A DNA stretch of 13,722 nucleotides from a virus (lineage: Duplodnaviria > Heunggongvirae > Uroviricota > Caudoviricetes), in IMG/VR virus record IMGVR_UViG_2778261570_000018, positions 1-13,722 of that record. One strand, 5' to 3'. The position numbers and the translations under genes are program-made. Under the pieces are notes generated by a model, which made no database searches, was not told the DNA's origin, and was given only the letters and a program-made list of their open reading frames with translations. Shown here piece after piece: positions 1 to 13,473 of this stretch; positions within the stretch are counted from its first letter, which is position 1, and every line of letters begins with the position of its first letter.

Positions 1-215
1 GTGCTGCGGATGATTTCCTGTCGGTGATTAACCCGGAATCGCTGGTGATCAAACAAGGCTTTGCTGAACCGTCGCTGAAAGAAGCGGTAGCGGGTAAAGC
101 ATTCCAGTTTGAGCGTGAAGGTTATTTCTGCCTCGACAGCCGCCATTCTACGGCGGAAAAACCGGTATTTAACCGCACCGTTGGGCTGCGTGATACCTGG
201 GCGAAGTTAGGTTAA
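1..215 (+). CDS. glnS: 3' end of glutaminyl-tRNA synthetase gene (5'-truncated by window edge; reading frame starts at nt 3)
   Basis: Frame is open from the window start to TAA at 213-215. Translation ...[70 protein letters not shown] matches my recollection of the C-terminal region of enterobacterial GlnRS. The listed ORF start at 24 is an internal GTG, not a real start. Confidence 0.7.
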
Positions 216-240: not shown

Positions 241-266
241 AAACGCCGCTACTGCGGCGTTTTTTA
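241..266. terminator. Rho-independent terminator shared by convergent glnS and the Dam-like gene
   Basis: Stem aaacgccgc (241-249), loop tact, stem gcggcgttt (254-262), followed by a T-run through 265. The minus-strand Dam-like stop codon (264-266) lies in the T-tract. Confidence 0.65.
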
Positions 267-1169
267 CTTCATTATTGCAATTATATCGTTAGCAACTACA
301 CGTGTTGACGCCTTGCAGGAAACCGACCGTCTGGCTGCCATATGATGTACTTTAAACCCGTTTCCTTCATATAGCTCACGGATGTTTGGAGCACCACTAT
401 TTGTTATCACTACCTTAGCGCCGCGCTGGTGGGCATCCACCAACAGTGATACAAGCCGTTTTTGTTCATCGAAACGGAAGCTATTTCCTGAATAGCTGGT
501 AAATCCCTCTGTATCCGGAAGCGGTTCATACGGCGGATCACAAAAAATCACATCGTCTTCACCAGCCGCCTCGATGACGCTAGCAAAGTCTCCTGATACA
601 AAGGAAGTGTTTTTGAGTACGTCATCAGCCAAAAATGCCTCCATCTCTGCATGTGGGAAGTAGGGCGCTTTGTATTTGCCATACCCCACGTTGAACTCGC
701 CATTTTGGTTGTACCGCGTTACGCCATTAAAACAGTGACGATTAAGGTACAAAAATGCGGCAGCATGATGTAGCTGGTCATATTTTCCTCTGTTAAATGC
801 CTCACGCACTTCGAGGTAAGCGTCAGCGTTGTTGTAATTTTTGAAAAAACTATATGACAGCGTGACGAGCGAATGTCCTTCTCGCTGCAATGTCTGATAG
901 AAGTTAATCAGGTCACCGTTAATATCATTAAGCAGGTTGTGGCGAAATCCTGCATTCGTAAATACGGAACCGCCACCAACGAATGGTTCTATTAACCGCT
1001 TACCGTGTGGTAGATGCTCAAGCACTGTAGGCAATTCTGAGAATTTACCACCTACCCATTTGAATATCGGACGCTCATATTCATCCGGAGTCCGAATGGT
1101 GCGCATATAGCTAATTTCAGCCATCGTATCCTGTTTTTCTATGGCTATGCTTGCTATAGATTTACTCAT
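264..1169 (-). CDS. Dam-family N6-adenine DNA methyltransferase (orphan; start codon uncertain, alternatives ATG 1124 or 1106)
   Basis: Translation contains FKWVGGK (AdoMet-binding motif, as in E. coli Dam LKWAGGK), PFVGGGSVF, LYLNR and the catalytic DPPY motif (VIFCDPPYEP). ATG at 1169 is preceded by AAGGGGG and overlaps the upstream gene stop (TATGAGTAA), suggesting translational coupling. Confidence 0.85.
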   Translation of the reverse strand: MSKSIASIAIEKQDTMAEISYMRTIRTPDEYERPIFKWVGGKFSELPTVLEHLPHGKRLIEPFVGGGSVFTNAGFRHNLLNDINGDLINFYQTLQREGHSLVTLSYSFFKNYNNADAYLEVREAFNRGKYDQLHHAAAFLYLNRHCFNGVTRYNQNGEFNVGYGKYKAPYFPHAEMEAFLADDVLKNTSFVSGDFASVIEAAGEDDVIFCDPPYEPLPDTEGFTSYSGNSFRFDEQKRLVSLLVDAHQRGAKVVITNSGAPNIRELYEGNGFKVHHMAARRSVSCKASTRVVANDIIAIMK

Positions 1170-1842
1170 AGAGCACCCCCTTATTCGCTTCGAAAACTGC
1201 CTTTGCGAATCCATGTGGAGTAGCACTTCGAAAATTAGCCCTGTCAGGCCCTGGTGGCGCGGCATGGATTCTGTTATCTGGCTTGCCTAATGATTCGTCC
1301 ATTAGGGCATCAGGCATGACAAAGCCCTGGCCGCTCCAGAGGCATGTTTTTTTGGTGTAGTTATCTTCCTGACAATATGCAGTGAAGAAGTAAGGGTGAA
1401 AGATGTGATCTGGCTTACGCCAGAATGTCGATATTTTGCTGACCGGATTTTCAATCATGTACGGACAACCGATCATCTTTGCAATGTCATAACACTGCCA
1501 GACAACCTGCATTGCTTTGAACTGGAAAACCGGATCTTTATTAGCCTTGTCCGAAAACCAGCGCGCGCCGGAAACAGCCAGGTCAGTACACGGTGGGAAC
1601 CCGGCCAGAAACACGATGCGCTGCAAATTCTTACGGAGAAAAGCGTATACTTCATCGCTATCGATGATCGCACTAATACGCGTCAGAACGGCACCTGATT
1701 GCATCCGCTCGTCACTGGTCGATAAGTGCTGTGGATCGACGATAGCGGCATCGACACCGTATTCCAGCCAGGGGGCAACCATTGCCCCCGTAAAATCACA
1801 AAGACTCACAACAAGCGGTCGGTTATTATCGTTCTGCTTCAC
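1162..1842 (-). CDS. Short DNA C5-cytosine methyltransferase-like protein (about 226 aa; start uncertain, GTG 1842 preferred over ORF-track TTG 1914 and ATG 1782)
   Basis: Ordered motifs with C5-MTase-like spacing: LCDFTGAM (motif I-like), GFPPCTD (PC catalytic Cys motif IV), IENPVS (ENV-like motif VI). GGAGG sits 9 nt upstream of GTG 1842. Starting at 1911/1914 would overlap RdgC by more than 80 nt. Confidence 0.5.
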
Positions 1843-2731
1843 CGCCAATGGCCTCCACCAGCGCGTTAAACAGTGCAGATAATTCGCCCGTAAAGAGCAC
1901 GAAATCAGCATCAAATCGTTGTGCTACATCCTCCCGGTCGATATCGTCGTTCTGGTCATAGAGATCATCACAGAATGTCAGGGCTTTGATACTCATATCA
2001 TCGTTGACTCTGAACGACGCACGGTCCATCCAGTTAATTGCAACGGTCGTAGCTACTTTCCCCGCCTCAATGTGAGACATAATCTCGTCGGACTGTAGAT
2101 CAACTTTGTTGCAGCGAACGGCACCACCATTATCGAGCAGACCCTTTAATGTGGCGTCTTCACCTGCTGTAAATCCGGCAGGGAAGCCGCTTTTAAACCA
2201 CTCGGTCATTGTAATTTCCAGCGGTTCGCGTGGTGTGAATGGAATGACAGGCAGGCTGCCGAGCGACTTTCGCAATAAAGCCAGCTGGTCCTCTGCCTTT
2301 TTGGCGCTGCTTGCCTCAACGAATACCAGATGGTTGCTGCGGTCGATCAGGATTTTGGCGAGTGATTTTCTCGTGAACGCGCGAGGCAAAAGTGAATGCA
2401 GGACTTCATCTTTAAGACTGTCTCTTTCCGTTTTCTTCAGCTTGCGGGCTTGCTCTTCTTCGAGTTTCAGGACTTTTTTCTGCAACTCTTCCTTGAGCAC
2501 CTGCGAGGGGAGAATTTTTTCTTCTCGCTTATGCTGTATTAGCAGAAAACCCTGGTATTCATGGGTGAGGTTGTCACCAAGAACAGGTGTCCAACCGACT
2601 TTAGCTGTGTCCTGAGAACCGCAAGGAGTAAACACGAATTTGCTAAGAGCATCGGATACTTCTGCGGCACTCCAGTTAACTTCACGTGAAAGACGATAGA
2701 TGAAGATGTTTTTGAAAGCGACTGATCTCAT
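1826..2731 (-). CDS. rdgC: RdgC-like recombination-associated DNA-binding protein (extra, island-borne copy)
   Basis: 301 aa, ATG at 2731. Collinear similarity to E. coli RdgC as I recall it ([83 protein letters not shown]-terminal GGEA.R). Confidence 0.85.
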
Positions 2732-2737
2732 GTTTCA

Positions 2738-2781
2738 CCAATTGTGTTAGAAAATTCTATTCAATTATCTAACACAATTGG
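2738..2781. promoter_or_regulatory. Perfect 13-bp inverted repeat with 18-bp AT-rich spacer in the spike-rdgC intergenic region (candidate operator)
   Basis: ccaattgtgttag (2738-2750) and ctaacacaattgg (2769-2781) are exact reverse complements. They lie between the spike-like gene stop (2791) and the rdgC start (2731). No U-tract follows on the transcribed strand, so a terminator is unlikely. Confidence 0.4.
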
Positions 2782-2790
2782 ATGTGTTTT

Positions 2791-3444
2791 CTATCCCTTC
2801 TTGAAATCAAAGTTGCTTGCGATAGCCTGGAAGGTGCCTCCAGCCTTGAAATCAATATTTTCGTCGGCTGTCACAGTAATGTTTTTGCCATTAACGCTGA
2901 TGTTATCGGCTGATTTGACGTTAACACTCCCTCCCGCATTCACTACTACATCAGCCGGACCAATGATGTATATCTGCCCTGATTCATTCATTCCAATCCT
3001 TGAGCCTGCTGCCGTATTCGCTATTTCATATCCACCGCCAGCCGTTCGCACTTCGAGCACATTGTTGCGGTGAATCACGAAATCTTTTGTCGCCGAAAAT
3101 TGCGGGCGGGGAGGCGCTCCGTCTACTTCTGGTGGCGTCCAGCCGCTACCATTGCCTGACGCCTCCGGCGCGACGTTTGGTACTCCGCCAGGCGCATCCT
3201 GAGCTGCGCCAACTATCATTGGGCGTCTGGTATCAATTCGACCATTAACATCCAGATAAGGAAACTCTACCCATACCAGGTCGCCTTTTACTGTAGGTAC
3301 AAAAGCGTTTCCGATGGGTAACAGGTATTCCGCCCAGGGTAGATCGTCATCAGGAACGCCATTCCAGTCAGGTAAAACACGGACTTGAGCACGCATAAGC
3401 CCTGCCGGGTGCACAGTTCCAACAATTTGCGCTCTACGCTTCAT
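2791..3444 (-). CDS. Phage baseplate spike protein, gpV/gp5-like (N-terminal OB-fold plus C-terminal beta-helix-like repeats)
   Basis: N-terminus GLMRAQVRVLPDWNGVPDDDLPWAEYLLPIGNAFVPTVKGDLVWVEFPYLDVNGRIDTRRPMIVGA fits the gpV/gp5/VgrG OB-fold pattern. C-terminus has G/N/V-rich repeats (VVVNAGGSVNVKSADNISVNGKNITVTADENIDFKAGG). The ATG overlaps the upstream stop as ATGA. Confidence 0.55.
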   Translation of the reverse strand: MKRRAQIVGTVHPAGLMRAQVRVLPDWNGVPDDDLPWAEYLLPIGNAFVPTVKGDLVWVEFPYLDVNGRIDTRRPMIVGAAQDAPGGVPNVAPEASGNGSGWTPPEVDGAPPRPQFSATKDFVIHRNNVLEVRTAGGGYEIANTAAGSRIGMNESGQIYIIGPADVVVNAGGSVNVKSADNISVNGKNITVTADENIDFKAGGTFQAIASNFDFKKG

Positions 3445-4421
3445 TTGTTCGGCACTCCCAATATCATTCGTGTTGTGTAGCCTACGCGGTCTTCAAAGTG
3501 CGCAACATTTTTTACTATCAGCTTACGGGGCATTGATTCATCAATGCGGTTTTCCTGGTCATAGCGGTATACGATAATCTCTATCACCATTCCCGGTTTT
3601 ATATCAGGATTGCCTGCGACTTCTATATCCATTTTGGGGACGAGAGACAGCTGCATATTGCGAAGAGTTTCCATATCAGAGTCGGATATATAACGCACTG
3701 GGAGTGAGCTATCGCCATATTCGACGTAGCCATCGGTCATGGAATACCCAACAAAACGATATTGATTCTTTGCTGTTGTCGCATGTTCCTGTTGGAGTAG
3801 GCGCATTTTGGACAAAGTGTATTCTGCTTTAGGGTTATTCCCCTCGTAGGTAAATGATGGCGTTTGCTTCATCAGATCAGCCAGGGTGTAAAAGTTAAAT
3901 TCCCCCCGGCATACCCAACATAATGCACCTTTGTCTCGCGCTATCTCCGAAAGCATTTTTGACGGTTTGTCACCGGCATTCAGATGATATGTAACTGCGC
4001 GTTTTAGCACGCTGCTGGTAATTTTAAGTTTGCCGGAATATGCCTTGAATATAGCGTCTGGTGTTTTGTTGGTATGTAAATTTGTGCGCGGGGAGGGGAT
4101 CTTAAACCTGCGCACGTCTTCACTGACAGCAATAACGGTAACAACATCACCAGCCAGCATTGCAGACGTAACAAAGAAATCTGTTTTAAAAGTGCCTGCA
4201 TTACCGTTTGGATCGCCCATTTCAGCCACCAGCGATGCACCGTATTTGGCTTTCCAGTCATCAATTACGGTGCCGGTAGCGTCATGAATTTCCAGTTTTA
4301 GCAAAGGGGCTTTGAGGCTGGTTTTTTCTACATATACTGCGGTAAAAATCCAGTCTCGTGGCACTTTGTTATCGTTAATGAGCACTGACTGTAGAAAATA
4401 TTGTTGTAACTCCTGGGCCAC
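3441..4421 (-). CDS. Hypothetical protein, 326 aa, in the tail/baseplate-like operon (possible hub-type protein; function not established)
   Basis: Long ORF with GTG start at 4421, 3 nt after the upstream stop, preceded by GGGGTGA. Its stop overlaps the spike gene start (ATGA). No family motif recognised with confidence. Confidence 0.55.
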   Translation of the reverse strand: MAQELQQYFLQSVLINDNKVPRDWIFTAVYVEKTSLKAPLLKLEIHDATGTVIDDWKAKYGASLVAEMGDPNGNAGTFKTDFFVTSAMLAGDVVTVIAVSEDVRRFKIPSPRTNLHTNKTPDAIFKAYSGKLKITSSVLKRAVTYHLNAGDKPSKMLSEIARDKGALCWVCRGEFNFYTLADLMKQTPSFTYEGNNPKAEYTLSKMRLLQQEHATTAKNQYRFVGYSMTDGYVEYGDSSLPVRYISDSDMETLRNMQLSLVPKMDIEVAGNPDIKPGMVIEIIVYRYDQENRIDESMPRKLIVKNVAHFEDRVGYTTRMILGVPNK

Positions 4422-6142: not shown

Positions 6143-6445
6143 ATGACCAAAAAAATTAACATAAAGGATTTCAGGGATGCGTGGCTTGATGATTTTTTTG
6201 AATTTTCAACACCACATAGAAAGATACCTCCTGATATTCATATGACATTGTCACGGAAGTTGGACATTATCAATGCCGCAACTACCTGTAATGATTTAAG
6301 ATCACCACCAGGTAATCGGTATGAGGAACTGTCAGGGAAGCTAAATGGCTATTCATCAGTAAGGGTGAATAAGCAATATAGGTTAATTTTTAAGTGGGTT
6401 AACGGAAAGGCCGAGGACTTGTATCTCGACCCTCACAAATACTAA
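6143..6445 (+). CDS. higB: HigB-family toxin (Rts1 HigB / killer-protein type, RelE/ParE superfamily)
   Basis: 100 aa. C-terminal pattern EELSGKLNGYSSVRVNKQYRLIFKWVNGKAEDLYLDPHKY parallels Rts1 HigB (...LKGDREGYWSITVRANWRITFQFINGD..L..EDYH as recalled). Toxin-first gene order with a downstream HTH antitoxin. Confidence 0.8.
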   Translation: MTKKINIKDFRDAWLDDFFEFSTPHRKIPPDIHMTLSRKLDIINAATTCNDLRSPPGNRYEELSGKLNGYSSVRVNKQYRLIFKWVNGKAEDLYLDPHKY

Positions 6446-6515: not shown

Positions 6516-6854
6516 ATGAAACAGGCAACCAGAAAACCGACGACCGTAGGTGATATCCTGCTGTACGAATACCTGGAGCCGTTAGAGCTGAAGATCAACG
6601 AGTTAGCAGAAATACTTCATGTTCATCGTAACACCGTAAGTGCTCTTGTTAATAATAATCGTAAGCTAACGATGGATATGGCATATCGCCTGGCAAAAGC
6701 ATTCGATACTTCTGTAGATTTTTGGATTAATCTTCAGACCGCAGTAGATCTGTGGGAAGTCGAAAATGATATGCGCGTTCAGGAAGAGTTAAGTCGTATC
6801 AATACTGCTGAAAAATTTATTTCTCAGCGGAACCTGAATAAAAAAGCAGCCTGA
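6516..6854 (+). CDS. higA: HigA-family antitoxin (XRE-type HTH, addiction-module antidote)
   Basis: 112 aa. GDILLYEYLEPLELKINELAEILHVHRNTVSALVNNNRKLTMDMAYRLAKAFDTSVDFWINLQ matches the HigA antidote HTH pattern. TAAGGG is 6 nt upstream of ATG 6516. Confidence 0.8.
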   Translation: MKQATRKPTTVGDILLYEYLEPLELKINELAEILHVHRNTVSALVNNNRKLTMDMAYRLAKAFDTSVDFWINLQTAVDLWEVENDMRVQEELSRINTAEKFISQRNLNKKAA

Positions 6855-6910: not shown

Positions 6911-7270
6911 ATGAACATTAAACCCATCCGTACAGAACAAGATTATGAGGCCGCACTGCGTGCGGTCGAACCGATGTTCGATAACGAACCGGAAATGAAT
7001 ACTCCGGAAGGTGATTTCTTTGAGGTTATGAGTCTTCTCATTGAGGAGTACGAGAAAAAACATTACCCAATTGAGCCACCATCACCTATTGAGGCCATTA
7101 AATTCCGTATGGAACAGCAAGGGCTGACCGTGAAGGATCTGGAACCGGCAATTGGTAAGTCAAACCGTGTTTACGAAGTGCTTAATGGGACACGAAATTT
7201 GACGTTACCTATGATTCGTCGTTTACATGCCCAGTTTGGTATTCCACTGGAAAGCCTGGTTGGCGTTTGA
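6911..7270 (+). CDS. Stand-alone HigA-like antitoxin/regulator of the E. coli YgjM (K-12 HigA) type, C-terminal HTH
   Basis: 119 aa. C-terminal GLTVKDLEPAIGKSNRVYEVLNGTRNLTLPMIRRLHAQFGIPLESL parallels K-12 HigA (GLTLSDLPEIGSKSMVSRVLSGKRKLTLEHAKKLATRFGISPALF as recalled). N-terminal EQDYEAALRAVEPMF parallels EEQYTQALELVDHLL. No cognate toxin gene is adjacent. Confidence 0.7.
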   Translation: MNIKPIRTEQDYEAALRAVEPMFDNEPEMNTPEGDFFEVMSLLIEEYEKKHYPIEPPSPIEAIKFRMEQQGLTVKDLEPAIGKSNRVYEVLNGTRNLTLPMIRRLHAQFGIPLESLVGV

Positions 7271-7299: not shown

Positions 7300-7333
7300 A
7301 TAAAAAATAGATACTAGAAATTTGGTAGCATAT

Positions 7334-8113
7334 ATGAGTACAGATTCATCAGTAAAGAAGACATCTGAATCAGATAAAGAAAATGAGTCCGTTGTTGATT
7401 CCGTCAAGAATACAATGGAATATGTTATAAAAGACAAAGTATTTAATAAGCTTTTTGCATATATTTTTATATCTTTTCTGGTTGTTAACTGGAGAGATAT
7501 ATTAATTTTGTTCAAATCAAAAGAAGATGTTCTATATACTCTGTCAATAGTTTTTACCGGTGAAAAAATACAATTTCTTGATGGCGAGATTTTACCTCCT
7601 TGGTTTGCCCACTTTTTCTTGCCGTTTTTCTATGGTGTGATTGCGTCGATTGTGGCACCAGTAATTACACTTGCGGTATCTTGCATTACAACTAAGGTGT
7701 ACTATAAAATAAAAATTTTGGACAATAAAACAGACGAAAACGAGAAAGAGAAATTAGCAAAAAGAGCCAAGAAAAGAGCTGAGCGTGAAATAGAGGCTAG
7801 CTATAGCCAACAAAAGCTGGATGAAAGAAAAAAAGAACTGGAAGACATTTTAAACAAAATAGAAGATGAAAAAGAAAAATATGATAAAATGAAAGAAAGG
7901 TTTGATGATGCCATAACGCTTACATATAAAAATATTCACATTTTGCCTACTCTGTATGAGAATAGGAAATGTAAAATTGAAACTCCGCAGGATTTATATG
8001 ATTTTATTGCAGCAATAAAGAAAACATCATTCTATAGTACTGATTTTAATGAATTGTTCTCTGATATTTCTCGATTGTATTCTGAAATGCAAACTGATTT
8101 ATCAGAAAAGTGA
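7334..8113 (+). CDS. Hypothetical membrane protein with two predicted TM helices and a long charged coiled-coil segment (AT-rich, likely foreign gene)
   Basis: 259 aa from ATG 7334 (the ORF-track start at 7322 is TTG). Hydrophobic segments LFAYIFISFLVVNW and FFLPFFYGVIASIVAPVITLAVSCI, then a K/E-rich heptad-like stretch (NEKEKLAKRAKKRAEREIEASYSQQKLDERKKELEDILNKIEDEKEKYDKMKERF). Coding region is visibly AT-rich compared with its flanks. Confidence 0.6.
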   Translation: MSTDSSVKKTSESDKENESVVDSVKNTMEYVIKDKVFNKLFAYIFISFLVVNWRDILILFKSKEDVLYTLSIVFTGEKIQFLDGEILPPWFAHFFLPFFYGVIASIVAPVITLAVSCITTKVYYKIKILDNKTDENEKEKLAKRAKKRAEREIEASYSQQKLDERKKELEDILNKIEDEKEKYDKMKERFDDAITLTYKNIHILPTLYENRKCKIETPQDLYDFIAAIKKTSFYSTDFNELFSDISRLYSEMQTDLSEK

Positions 8114-11370: not shown

Positions 11371-11601
11371 GCTTTGGCGTTATGACTCCCTACCGCGCTT
11401 CGGCTGAAAGTTAATCGTCAAAAGAACCTTCAACGGGAGCCGTTAGCGCGATGGATTATGTGCAGTTTGTGATTTCCAAAATAGTGTCAACTACTTTTTG
11501 TGGATTTTATTTTTTGTCCGAAATTTGGCCTAAATCATGTTGATTTGGCTGATTATTTTTATAACATAAAACTTCATTTTGTTTACATGAAGGACGGTGT
11601 A

Positions 11602-12216
11602 GTGAAGTTAAGGGTTTTAGGGACCGCGCTCGCGGCTATGTTGGGATGCGTATCTGTTAATACTGCCAATGCAACTGCGTTACCTGCAAAGTATTGGGCT
11701 GGTGTGAAAGTGTTGCGGAACGCTGAAAAAGGCAATACAGCTGATGATATTTTCAAGTTTTGCCAAAAAGAAAATATCCCTCTGCACCCGGTTGAGCCGT
11801 ACTTTACAGGAAAGAATGATTTCTGTGTGTTTGCGTATACCGCAGACCAAACAGATAAGGCTATACGCAAGACAGGGTATTCTACTCAAGACACTATGGC
11901 GTCCTTAAGTAAAAACTGGTTGCAGTTTGAGGTTTACCGTAGTGAAGGAATGGGAGAGCTATTGCAGCCACTGTATATGCTGGCGTTAGTTCCGGAAGGG
12001 CAGCAGTTCCTTATTCGAAAAGGAATGCTTCGGAAAAGCGATGTAACCGGATTCAATAACACGATGGAGCTTGAACGCTCAATGAAGCAAAAGCAAGCGC
12101 CTAAGCAGCCAACAGCCGAATGTATTAGCAGCGAGATACAAAAGGCATTAAGCGAGCAGCCTTACATTGATCGTGGTGTGGCGGAAATGGCTGCCAAAAT
12201 GAAGTGTTCCAATTAA
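11602..12216 (+). CDS. Hypothetical secreted/periplasmic protein with N-terminal signal peptide (start GTG 11602; alternative ATG 11587)
   Basis: AAGGA (11590-11594) is 7 nt upstream of GTG 11602. N-terminus MKLRVLGTALAAMLGCVSVNTANA is a typical signal peptide (ANA cleavage site or a weak lipobox). Mature part contains several Cys. The ORF-track start at 11500 lacks an RBS. Confidence 0.55.
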   Translation: MKLRVLGTALAAMLGCVSVNTANATALPAKYWAGVKVLRNAEKGNTADDIFKFCQKENIPLHPVEPYFTGKNDFCVFAYTADQTDKAIRKTGYSTQDTMASLSKNWLQFEVYRSEGMGELLQPLYMLALVPEGQQFLIRKGMLRKSDVTGFNNTMELERSMKQKQAPKQPTAECISSEIQKALSEQPYIDRGVAEMAAKMKCSN

Positions 12217-12259: not shown

Positions 12260-13081
12260 ATGTTCTTTATGAAAAATGGAAAAAGATTTTCCGCAACAAT
12301 GCTTGCTACTATTGTCGCTCTTTTCGTTCCCACATTCACCTTTGCTTATGATTTTAGCAAAATTGACTGCAATGCCCCTAAAACCAGGCAGATGTTAATC
12401 GATGATTATAATGAACTACTCAAGGACGATCAGGAAGCAATCACTGTAATTGATGCTTATAATCAGATTAATGAAATAAGCGAAAAAAGTAAGCTCCAAT
12501 GTTTAGGCACGTATGAGTTCTCAGATGGAAGTGCGCTTAGAGTTAGATATAAGTTATATTTAAATAGCCTCGGCACACCCATATATGAATTTGCTCCAGT
12601 TGAGGAATTAACGCAGGATGATGTAAGCGCATCTATTCAAAATATCCCTGCAACCACAGCGAGTAGGACTGGGGGGAATGAAGAAACGTATGCCTGCAAG
12701 GTGGCTGTAACTTACAAGGGGGAGCGTTCTAACTATATGGGGGATTCCGGAACATGGGATCGTGTGATTACTGACTATGGCACTTATTTTTCATGGGATT
12801 TACCACGCGGAAACCGAGGCAACAGCACAGGTCAGGATGCTTTTAGTGGCATGGACGAATCAAAGCCTGTATTAGAAAATCAGCTAGTGAGAAAGGAAAC
12901 TGAAAAAGATGGTAGCGTGGTTGATGAGTTTAGGACAGAAGTGAGTTATGGAGATAAACAACCGGTACATAAGTTTGTATATGCCCGTAGAATAAAACCT
13001 ACAGGAACGAGAGAATATTATGTCACTGATTTGACGGACAAGCGGGCATTTATGTTTCTGAATTGCCAGCAAGATTCGTAA
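12260..13081 (+). CDS. Hypothetical secreted protein with N-terminal signal peptide
   Basis: GGAG is 8 nt upstream of ATG 12260. N-terminus MFFMKNGKRFSATMLATIVALFVPTFTFA. AT-rich coding region, 43 nt downstream of the preceding gene (likely co-transcribed). Confidence 0.6.
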   Translation: MFFMKNGKRFSATMLATIVALFVPTFTFAYDFSKIDCNAPKTRQMLIDDYNELLKDDQEAITVIDAYNQINEISEKSKLQCLGTYEFSDGSALRVRYKLYLNSLGTPIYEFAPVEELTQDDVSASIQNIPATTASRTGGNEETYACKVAVTYKGERSNYMGDSGTWDRVITDYGTYFSWDLPRGNRGNSTGQDAFSGMDESKPVLENQLVRKETEKDGSVVDEFRTEVSYGDKQPVHKFVYARRIKPTGTREYYVTDLTDKRAFMFLNCQQDS

Positions 13082-13086
13082 TTGAT

Positions 13087-13124
13087 AAAGCAGGCTTAAC
13101 GACTAAGCCTGCTTTTTGAATTTT
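13087..13124 (+). terminator. Intrinsic terminator after the secreted-protein operon (also abuts the stop of the convergent membrane-protein gene)
   Basis: 11-bp perfect stem aaagcaggctt (13087-13097) / aagcctgcttt (13105-13115), 7-nt loop, then tttttgaatttt. Confidence 0.6.
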
Positions 13125-13473
13125 ACTCGGTAATAGTTTTGCAGTTGTTTTGGTTTAAGACCAATCCAAGTTTGCTGGCGGCCAACTCATTTTCTGTGTG
13201 AGAGCCAGCAAATACAAATCCTTGTTTTATCTTATTTACGGTGAAATATTTATTGTATATAAATGCCCAGACAAGTGAAGCTACCCAAGGACCAATTCCT
13301 GCAGTGAGGAATGCCAGGATTAGCATCACAACGAACACCCCGATGAAAGTTATAAAGTCTTTCCTGAACAAAGCCGGGAAGGCACCAAAAAAGAACGTAG
13401 TCCAGGAGAATCCATAAAAGCCTGAGATGGACTCGCCTGTCCGAGGATTTTCTAAGTTAATTTTAGTAGCCAA
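13123..13473 (-). CDS. Small inner-membrane protein (116 aa, two predicted TM segments), TTG start
   Basis: Hydrophobic stretches FYGFSWTTFFFGAFPALF and FIGVFVVMLILAFLTAGIGPWVASLVWAFIY. AAAGGA is 9 nt upstream of TTG 13473. No in-frame ATG is available near the N-terminus. Confidence 0.55.
   Translation of the reverse strand: MATKINLENPRTGESISGFYGFSWTTFFFGAFPALFRKDFITFIGVFVVMLILAFLTAGIGPWVASLVWAFIYNKYFTVNKIKQGFVFAGSHTENELAASKLGLVLNQNNCKTITE

Follow-up and report, generated by a model that had tools for sequence, protein, structure and literature searches.

The three-gene operon described here is the D6-type version of the hrdC-dmt operon of phage P1, carried on a ~90-kb Escherichia coli plasmid prophage. 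It consists of an rdgC/hrdC homologue, a short gene for a C5-cytosine-methyltransferase-like protein and a Dam-type gene, and most likely represents a repressor-controlled self-methylation module that carries an RdgC homologue. The whole explanation, i.e., a D6-type hrdC-dmt operon that is repressed by C1, methylates the DNA of its own element and contains a swappable C5 cassette, appears to us probable. The three-gene arrangement is already known: it is annotated as orf63-65 in phage D6 and is the counterpart of P1 hrdC-dmt. Since the operon has been annotated before in plasmid prophages of the D6/P1 type, there is little out of the ordinary in the finding. Potentially new are two details, namely the swappable cassette, which extends from the rdgC stop to dam codon 26, and a palindrome in which two operator-like copies lie over a weak promoter and the outer pairs covary. 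The window, i.e., the whole stretch of DNA that was analysed, has a length of 13,722 nt and contains the following features.

24..215, plus strand: 3' end of glnS (phage-plasmid-borne glutaminyl-tRNA synthetase; Pfam tRNA-synt_1c_C2), corresponding to D6 orf62 and plasmid glnS
241..262, both strands: bidirectional intrinsic terminator between the convergent dam and glnS genes, with a 9-pair stem (6 G-C) and T-runs on both strands
264..1169, minus strand: Dam-type N6-adenine DNA methyltransferase gene, 301 aa, Pfam PF02086, with its ATG inside the ATGAGTAA overlap
1095..1825, minus strand: exchangeable cassette delimited by homology breakpoints (body of the short C5 gene and the first 25 dam codons)
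1162..1842, minus strand: short C5-cytosine-methyltransferase-like gene, 226 aa, GTG start, overlapping rdgC
1826..2731, minus strand: rdgC/hrdC homologue, 301 aa, Pfam PF04381, the first gene of the operon
2738..2781, no strand assigned: palindrome with 19-bp arms (2738-2756 and 2763-2781) found by inverted-repeat search, a probable bivalent C1-type operator
2764..2793, minus strand: weak sigma-70-like promoter found by consensus scan (TAGAAA, 18 nt, GATAAT; 9/12 match)

Organization and relatives of the operon

All three ORFs are located on the minus strand where the first-pass annotation had placed them: rdgC runs from ATG 2731 to TAA 1828-1826, the short C5 gene from GTG 1842 to TAA 1164-1162, and the dam-like gene from ATG 1169 to TAA 266-264. 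That annotation had described overlapping stop and start codons, with one overlap at 1162-1169. This was confirmed, as rdgC and the C5 gene overlap by 17 nt and the C5 and dam genes by 8 nt, the latter being exactly ATGAGTAA at 1169-1162. Because such overlaps are common in bacterial and phage operons, they are unremarkable in themselves. The start of the short C5 gene is preceded by GGAGG at 1856-1852, 9 nt upstream. The glnS gene at 24..215 is a neighbour of the operon and lies outside it.

Profile scans assigned the other ORFs of the window to tail and baseplate proteins, two HigB/HigA pairs and hypothetical proteins, and no restriction endonuclease was found among them. PADLOC gave no match for RdgC or for other accessory ORFs. 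D6 and two complete plasmids agree with the window in that the operon is flanked by glnS or par genes on one side and by tail genes on the other, and no endonuclease adjoins the methylase genes in the manner of a Type II restriction-modification (R-M) system. The first-pass annotation had seen a phage-borne module of two orphan methyltransferases that has no endonuclease partner in the window and is not an R-M system. With no nuclease nearby and the operon sitting on a D6-like plasmid prophage, this view is borne out. It had also called for profile searches of the three proteins; Pfam recognized RdgC and Dam and failed to recognize the middle protein.

The source of the window is a D6-like phage-plasmid with 99.6% identity to ~90-kb E. 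coli plasmids, and the operon shows 96.6% DNA identity to orf65-64-63 of phage D6. According to the GenBank annotation, on which the statements on the operon genes of D6 (MF356679) and P1 rest, orf65-orf64-orf63 have the same gene order, overlaps and neighbours as in the window (gene 5 upstream, glnS downstream) and encode an RdgC-family protein, a putative DNA-cytosine methylase and a site-specific DNA-adenine methylase. The D6 genome was reportedly described by Gilcrease and Casjens in 2018. The operons of D6 and the window have point differences only, whereas the accessory genes downstream of the tail genes differ. In every D6-like locus examined, the order rdgC, C5, dam is kept without interruption down to ~64-67% amino-acid identity, and an RdgC homologue followed by C5 and Dam functions was present in 26 of 26 related loci.

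In P1 uhr-hrdC-dmt, an RdgC homologue likewise directly precedes cytosine-C5 and Dam functions with overlapping stop and start codons, i.e., coupled translation, and there is no nuclease partner. The differences are as follows. P1 Dmt is a fusion of PF00145 and PF02086 domains (754 aa), whereas the C5 protein of the window is a separate protein of 226 aa; moreover, the C5 module of P1 is a canonical PF00145 domain to which the window protein has no detectable sequence similarity. P1 has an additional small gene, uhr, which the window lacks. Finally, the P1 operon adjoins the plasmid replicon and ban, whereas the operon of the window directly follows tail gene 5.

The RdgC homologue matched PF04381 over profile positions 3-298 of 298 (E = 5e-103, 344.9 bits, cut-off 25) and NCBIfam NF001462 with 381 bits (cut-off 330), and this full-length match places it in the RdgC family. 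Along its entire length it shares 60% identity with E. coli RdgC (PDB 2OWL), and its identity to P1 HrdC is 51%. The 'LLPRAF' segment is conserved, and its R118 and F120 are, as we assume, the DNA-binding finger residues. E. coli RdgC is a dsDNA-binding ring protein and an antagonist of RecA. As the first-pass annotation had suggested, the gene is an extra copy, additional to that of the host. A literature search on the function of phage-encoded RdgC gave nothing informative. P1 can do without hrdC and dmt in a normal host (PMC10695390).

The Dam-type protein matched PF02086 (D12) with E = 7e-57 and 193 bits (cut-off 22) and TIGR00571 with 251 bits (cut-off 115), as expected of a D12-class enzyme, and its best PADLOC model was 'orphan methyltransferase'. 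It reached 240.9 bits against the host-Dam equivalog NF008152, well below the cut-off of 441. Judged by these scores, it is a family member and not a host-type orthologue; both RdgC and Dam of the window are phage-plasmid copies below the NCBIfam equivalog cut-offs for host proteins. The catalytic DPPY motif ('FCDPPYEP') and the SAM-binding glycine loop ('EPFVGGGSVF') align with the motifs of E. coli Dam, to which the protein is 40% identical. K9, N120, R124, Y138 and DPPY are kept, while Y119F, L122V and P134G differ in the recognition loop. The known GATC methylase P1 Dmt has F and G at Y119 and P134, as in the window, but keeps Leu at L122. The C-terminal half of P1 Dmt is 69% identical to the window protein, with the recognition loop NRHCFNG(V/L)TRYNQ-GEFNVGYGKYK in both. 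Given this identity and the shared DNA-recognition loop, the window Dam very probably methylates GATC. Compared with E. coli Dam, it also has a 32-residue N-terminal leader, part of the exchangeable cassette.

The palindrome upstream of rdgC

The palindrome holds two inverted copies of TGTGTTAGA(A/T)AA at 2743-2754 and 2765-2776. In D6, this motif occurs 14 times with at most one mismatch against 0.5 expected, an enrichment of about 27-fold. Twelve of the 14 copies are intergenic, including those upstream of c1, lpa, ref and icd/ant. The motif matches the P1 C1 operator ATTGCTCTAATAAATTT at 11 of 17 positions. The promoter overlaps this element, and its -10 hexamer falls inside the left operator copy. 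The T completing GATAAT is invariant in 15 of 15 variants despite causing the sole mismatch of the palindrome. In the P1 record, the C1 operator Op68 and the promoter Pdmt are annotated before uhr-hrdC-dmt; P1 has a single repressor operator copy at this promoter, against two inverted copies of the predicted operator in the window element. It should be mentioned that the D6 motif copies precede genes that C1 controls in P1. We consider the palindrome a probable C1-type operator that is also able to form a hairpin. Its position over the promoter points to an operon that would be repressed in the lysogen and expressed on induction or infection.

Alternatively, the palindrome may act as an RNA hairpin (3'-end stabiliser, attenuator or translational block) that ends the late tail operon, with the three genes being late genes read through from gene 5. 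We regard this possibility as rather unlikely, although several observations agree with it. As RNA, the palindrome would form a strong hairpin (-26.5 kcal/mol, z = -5.3), and gene 5 and rdgC are separated by only 59 nt. Part of the ribosome-binding site of rdgC, its GG, falls within the 3' arm. In an alignment of 15 distinct variants, pairing is kept in 98.7% of cells, and double changes occur in 6 pairs: five outer pairs and one inner pair covary. Of the 8 one-sided changes, 5 give G-U or U-G on the sense strand. A compensated change of this kind separates the window (AATTG/CAATT) from D6 (ATTTG/CAAAT). We also considered that covariation of the outer palindrome might reflect a lineage-specific operator consensus and rejected this, because in plasmid MINF_7C the 5' flanks of the 12 other motif copies are unrelated to those of rdgC. 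Since the outer flanks of the other copies are unrelated there, the outer pairing is specific to the rdgC site.

However, the invariant inner 11 bp are exactly the motif found in 14 copies in D6, where it is mostly single and non-palindromic and precedes genes of early or regulatory function. The 22-bp offset between inverted copies recurs before ref and at one other locus, there without the outer pairing, and the one conserved mismatch of the palindrome creates the -10 hexamer. The stem is not followed by a U-tract, which also speaks against an intrinsic terminator of gene 5. Moreover, templated correction of quasi-palindromes during replication could mimic covariation without selection. Scanning the whole window for Rfam families and tRNAs gave no matches, and the palindrome is thus not a described RNA family.

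It should be noted that the operator and the hairpin are mutually compatible. The palindrome might have a dual role, acting as a bivalent operator in DNA and as an RNA hairpin that silences rdgC translation on late read-through transcripts, which is a more modest proposal than the RdgC clamp discussed below. The operon directly follows late tail gene 5, and late read-through transcription is possible.

Proposed role of the module

Based on the above, we suggest the following mode of action for the C1-repressed self-methylation module. The weak promoter under the two inverted C1-type sites would be silent in the lysogen and become active after induction or infection. A single mRNA would then carry rdgC, the gene of a putative short m5C methyltransferase and a presumably GATC-specific dam gene. 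The overlapping stop and start codons would couple translation, and the transcript would end at the terminator that also serves glnS. The two orphan methylases are proposed to mark the fast-replicating phage DNA. By analogy with P1, methylation may keep a GATC-rich pac site cleavable, with the DNA fully methylated, and an incidental effect could be protection against methylation-sensitive restriction once the DNA enters the next host. The RdgC homologue would probably shield the replicating phage DNA from RecA. The C5 position is swappable: relatives have either the short enzyme, in which no TRD is recognisable, or a Dam-fused C5 domain of the P1 type.

For the P1 homologue, Dam methylation of pac is the role with the best documentation: P1 needs this methylation at its packaging site, and dmt is therefore essential in dam- hosts (PMC12707154). 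In support of a role at pac, the densest GATC cluster of D6 lies outside the window and comprises 5 sites in ~130 bp of the 5' part of pacA, which alone is not strongly significant. The 5' part of pacA is presumably also where the P1 pac site is located.

Anti-restriction is a plausible second role of the module. It is doubtful, in our opinion, that it is the main one, i.e., that the operon is primarily a 'Trojan horse' that pre-methylates exported DNA against the type II enzymes of the next host, with packaging control secondary. The two orphan methylases on a mobile element without a nuclease partner, the Dar anti-restriction genes on the same element and the repeated exchange of unrelated enzymes in the C5 slot, which fits selection by changing host restriction repertoires, are consistent with such a role. 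So is the expression, probably confined to the lytic phase, as a review of R-M systems describes for protective methylases of phages (PMC12707154). However, E. coli hosts already make Dam and Dcm marks, and D6 shows no avoidance of GATC or CCWGG (325 GATC sites against ~353 expected; 224 CCWGG). Furthermore, pac is the sole place at which the P1 homologue has been demonstrated to be required (PMC12707154).

The short C5 protein and the exchangeable cassette

The N-terminus 'SLCDFTG' is conserved in 26 aligned homologues, and the short C5 gene thus starts at GTG 1842; the RefSeq start at ATG 1782 is a truncation. Sequence searches did not link the protein to canonical C5 methylases. There was no match in Pfam (none to PF00145 even at E<=1), no link through NCBIfam and PADLOC models, and nothing relevant in a profile search of the PDB, where only spurious ornithine decarboxylase matches appeared. 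BLASTP found no similarity to the N-terminal half of P1 Dmt, and hhalign of the family profile with the P1 Dmt C5 domain gave a probability of 0.2%. The relation to canonical C5 methylases was established by fold comparison and motif inspection only. The protein has a DNMT3-like fold and shows the catalytic motifs PC and ENPV, which are invariant in the alignment of homologues. On its Rossmann fold, motifs I (SAM loop), IV (Pro-Cys) and VI (Glu-Asn-Val/Pro) succeed each other as in canonical enzymes. No insertion resembling the TRD that canonical enzymes have between motifs VIII and IX was seen, and only ~95 residues follow ENPV.

The protein belongs to phrog_757 'Dcm-like' (E = 4e-78, residues 2-224), a family that has >7,900 homologues and occurs in ~1,500 phage genomes. 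The 'Dcm-like' proteins of BASEL phages PaulSarasin and PeterMerian have 231-246 aa against 226 here and align over their full length with 32-35% identity. Members of phrog_757 share the invariant motifs of the window protein, among them the residues targeted by mutation in phage K42 Dcm (the Cys, the Glu and the KK of YTKKT). In lytic Drexlerviridae and lambdoid prophages, the phrog_757 gene stands alone among early or nin-region genes, whereas here it lies between rdgC and dam. K42 Dcm, labelled 'Dcm-like C5 cytosine methyltransferase' in BASEL, makes 5mC on msDNA and triggers retron Ec86, and its 5mC formation in vivo depended on the equivalent Cys and Glu (bioRxiv 10.1101/2023.08.16.553469). 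The K42/KarlJaspers Dcm, the only protein of this kind with reported 5mC formation, was provisionally placed in phrog_757 by its BASEL label, size and positions of catalytic residues.

The absence of a recognisable target-recognition domain and of a PF00145 match could mean that the protein is not a DNA m5C methyltransferase and uses another substrate (RNA or a nucleotide) or cofactor, e.g., carboxy-SAM, like phage CmoX. We consider this improbable: the invariant PC and ENPV motifs define C5-pyrimidine DNA methylases, a presumed family member made 5mC on DNA in vivo in dependence on the equivalent Cys and Glu, and no CmoA-like carboxy-SAM synthase gene is annotated in D6.

When the window was compared with D6-like loci that have a P1-type fused Dmt, DNA homology stopped exactly at 1826 and resumed at 1094. 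This segment is the exchangeable cassette, which is of the short C5 type in 21 of 26 D6-like loci and of the fused PF00145+PF02086 type in the other 5. Both types use the identical GTG start. Depending on the relative, the C5 methylase is either part of one polypeptide with Dam or linked to it by translational coupling.

The linkage of the three genes might also reflect a physical machine, in which the short C5 protein works in complex with Dam and the RdgC ring serves as a DNA-encircling loader, clamp or gatekeeper. As no target-recognition domain is recognisable in the short enzyme, such a complex would be its way of working, and in the gatekeeper variant the ring may keep RecA off new DNA until it is methylated. 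We consider this machine very improbable; if it exists, RdgC-family proteins would acquire a role in epigenetic marking.

It is extremely unlikely that one or both methylase genes are decaying remnants, as the RefSeq/PGAP annotation of pLD93-1-90kb (Dam gene 'incomplete, missing N-terminus', short C5 gene started at an internal ATG) and the lack of any Pfam or NCBIfam match for the short protein might imply, since both ORFs are intact with ribosome-binding sites and every catalytic motif, tblastn found dam uninterrupted in 26 of the 26 D6-like loci that reach it (cut only by contig ends) and the short C5 gene in all 21 loci carrying it (63-100% identity for both methylases), and in another RefSeq record this dam gene is listed as a full methylase of the Dam family. 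The 'missing N-terminus' flag is explained by the closest relatives that carry a name, the fused and thus longer Dmt proteins of the P1 type.

The gene arrangement as such adds nothing, as dozens of E. coli plasmids with near-identity to the window have been sequenced. Its analysis allows two annotation errors to be corrected, namely the truncation of the short C5 gene in RefSeq and the wrong flagging of the Dam gene as a pseudogene. In addition, no Pfam model covers the short phage methylases of the 'Dcm-like' type, a very large family. Since a 'Dcm-like' member was reported to trigger retron Ec86, D6-like plasmid prophages may be sensed by Ec86 on induction. The role of phage RdgC could be tested in the compact D6-type operon. 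The swap of two unrelated C5 methylases in one sharply bounded cassette, the one fused to Dam and the other separate, neatly illustrates how domain fission and non-orthologous replacement occur in nature. It also shows that selection maintains the C5 function jointly with RdgC and Dam.

Gene organization and identity of the element

The first 6 kb of the window were 99.4–99.6% identical to ~90-kb E. coli plasmids, and at least 80% of this sequence was present in 95 of 5,426 complete E. coli genomes. Positions 264–2731 showed 96.6% identity to phage D6 (GenBank MF356679), a P1-like plasmid prophage. The three overlapping ORFs described in the first-pass annotation were correct in coordinates and overlaps, and all lie on the minus strand. 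The features considered here are as follows:

2731–1826, minus strand: rdgC (ATG 2731 to TAA 1828–1826)
1842–1162, minus strand: middle gene, encoding a short (226 aa) C5-cytosine-methyltransferase-like protein
1169–264, minus strand: dam
24–215, plus strand: 3′ end (last 63 codons) of a phage-borne glnS, downstream of dam and convergent with it
upstream of rdgC: tail and baseplate genes 7-24-6-5
6143–6445, 6516–6854 and 6911–7270, plus strand; 10391–10047 and 10050–9757, minus strand: HigB-like/HTH genes and an extra HTH gene
7322–8113, 11500–12216 and 12260–13081, plus strand; 13123–13473, minus strand: AT-rich (33–43% GC) accessory ORFs

GenBank labels the D6 counterpart of rdgC, orf65, as RdgC family and "similar to P1 hrdC"; that of the middle gene, orf64, as a putative DNA-cytosine methylase; and that of dam, orf63, as a site-specific DNA-adenine methylase "similar to C-terminal half of P1 dmt". 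The glutaminyl-tRNA synthetase gene is complete on the phage-plasmid (sequence L002, 7554–9215; D6 orf62) and shares a terminator with dam; it is missing from some D6-like relatives, namely MINF_7C plasmid 4 and several IMG/VR loci. Inserted between tail-gene blocks are two pairs of HigB-like toxin and HTH antitoxin genes together with the extra HTH gene, and the second pair is not found at the corresponding position in D6. The region of the accessory ORFs differs from the D6 simB region. None of these four ORFs had a family match, and ORF 7322–8113 has the appearance of a membrane and coiled-coil protein.

The N-terminus of the middle protein around SLCDFTG is conserved in an alignment of 26 homologues, so the start was placed at GTG 1842, which a GGAGG precedes by 9 nt, rather than at ATG 1782, the RefSeq choice; the overlap with rdgC is therefore 17 nt. 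The middle-gene TAA (1164–1162) and the dam ATG (1169) both fall within ATGAGTAA. Such overlaps are ordinary for operons. In RefSeq NZ_CP047663, the start at the internal ATG (GUU84_RS22930) removes the SAM-binding motif, and the intact dam gene (RS22925, 264–1169) is marked as an incomplete pseudogene; its "missing N-terminus" flag arises because the best-named relatives are fused C5-Dam proteins. A database protein of 305 aa (P0004, from a 1,053-bp contig) was 83% identical to the middle protein and also had a Pfam RdgC match; one assembly thus seems to contain an rdgC-methylase ORF that is either frameshifted or fused.

The cytosine methyltransferase slot

Profile searches bore out the assignments of RdgC (full-length Pfam and NCBIfam matches) and Dam (Pfam D12 and TIGR00571, far over cut-offs). 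The middle protein matched no Pfam, NCBIfam or PADLOC model, but it did match phrog_757 (E = 4e-78). More than 7,900 homologues of ~215–250 aa exist, with relatives in ~1,500 phage genomes, and residues that are invariant among homologues correspond to motifs I, IV (Pro-Cys) and VI (Glu-Asn-Pro-Val) of C5 methylases. The protein aligned over its full length with BASEL "Dcm-like C5 cytosine methyltransferase" proteins (32–35% identity). Phage K42 Dcm, likened to it through this BASEL family label, is reported to make 5mC on the msDNA of retron Ec86 and to trigger Ec86, depending on Cys, Glu and Lys-Lys residues (bioRxiv 10.1101/2023.08.16.553469) that correspond to invariant positions of the middle protein. 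Outside this setting, the short gene occurs by itself, as in the nin region of lambdoid prophages.

The P1 operon uhr-hrdC-dmt is transcribed from a promoter bearing the C1 operator Op68, and its Dmt is a single polypeptide of 754 aa in which a PF00145 C5 domain precedes a Dam domain. No similarity between the middle protein and the P1 Dmt C5 domain was found by BLASTP or hhalign; thus, the C5 slot of the window operon is filled by an unrelated enzyme. The P1-like Cronobacter phage JK004 (L015) carries an extra 191-aa gene (2752–3327), with no family match, between hrdC and a fused dmt.

Among 26 D6-like loci gathered via their RdgC, the order gene 5, rdgC, C5 slot, dam was kept in all 26. The short gene occupied the slot in 21 loci, whereas in the other five a P1-type C5 domain was fused in frame to Dam, beginning at the same GTG overlapping the rdgC end. 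DNA homology between the window and the fused variants is lost precisely at the stop codon of rdgC (1826) and restarts at 1094, dam codon 26 ("RTPDEYERPIFKW"). Even in a relative with just 64% identity, the slot holds the short type. The C5 slot between rdgC and dam is a swappable cassette. In one fused variant the C5 domain is 95% identical to that of P1 beside RdgC and Dam of D6 type, which points to a recent swap between these two lineages of phage-plasmids.

A palindrome upstream of rdgC

The 59-nt spacer upstream of rdgC holds a palindrome with 19-bp arms (2738–2781), each containing TGTGTTAGA(A/T)AA. D6 has 14 copies of this motif with at most one mismatch (0.5 expected; maximum of 2 in 60 shuffles), 12 of them intergenic; these include copies ahead of c1, lpa, ref and icd/ant, the kinds of genes that are under C1 control in P1. 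Compared with the P1 operator ATTGCTCTAATAAATTT, the motif agrees at 11 of 17 positions. The left copy contains the -10 element of a weak promoter (TAGAAA, 18 nt, GATAAT), and the T creating GATAAT is invariant in 15 sequence variants, though it is the only mismatch of the palindrome. Based on the repeated motif, the P1 match and the position of the -10 element, we read the palindrome as a putative bivalent operator of C1 type that covers a promoter belonging to the operon itself. Three inverted motif pairs in MINF_7C (L021+L022; 30035/30057, 59085/59107 and 70752/70774), one just upstream of ref, share an identical 22-bp offset, suggesting that bivalent operators of this geometry are general among D6-like elements.

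Across the 15 variants, the inner 11 bp are invariant, and five outer pairs vary by lineage while staying complementary (98.7% of cells paired). Two-sided changes occurred in six pairs (22 cells), and of the eight one-sided changes, five produced a sense-strand G-U or U-G. This outer pairing is peculiar to the site upstream of rdgC, and the operator motif alone is insufficient to explain it. Folded as RNA, the region reaches -26.5 kcal/mol (z = -5.3), and its 3′ arm partly overlaps the ribosome-binding site of rdgC; an Rfam scan gave no match. A hairpin acting on tail-operon read-through transcripts would be a reasonable second function of the putative operator. Templated correction of quasi-palindromes offers a neutral alternative for the covariation. 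A shifted operator consensus was ruled out, because in MINF_7C the sequences flanking the remaining motif copies are unrelated.

Methylation and the role of the operon

RdgC of the window shares 60% identity with E. coli RdgC and 51% with P1 HrdC. Dam is 40% identical to E. coli Dam, keeping DPPY and the contact residues K9, N120, R124 and Y138, and shares 69% identity with the C-terminal half of P1 Dmt, with a nearly identical recognition loop. It is very probably GATC-specific, because P1 Dmt methylates GATC; P1 Dmt is also required for pac cleavage in dam- hosts (PMC12707154). In a normal host, P1 hrdC and dmt are dispensable (PMC10695390).

Consistent with the first-pass annotation, profile scans of the ORFs found no nuclease in the window, and no nuclease adjoining the module was found in the full replicons. 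Its interpretation as an anti-restriction or epigenetic module was partly right, but the module had already been described in D6 and P1. The additions made here are modest: the cassette polymorphism, the operator-like palindrome with its covariation, and the corrected annotations.

In D6 (L004), GATC is most densely clustered at 3715–3846, outside the window in the 5′ part of pacA: five sites fall within ~130 bp, four of them in TGATC. The cluster is reminiscent of the methylation-dependent pac site of P1, which lies in this part of pacA, and its location would agree with packaging that depends on methylation as in P1. The evidence best supports a self-methylation operon under repressor control, translationally coupled, which would furnish the phage, as it replicates, with Dam and m5C methylases of its own and an RdgC homologue, with protection from methylation-sensitive restriction as a plausible added benefit.
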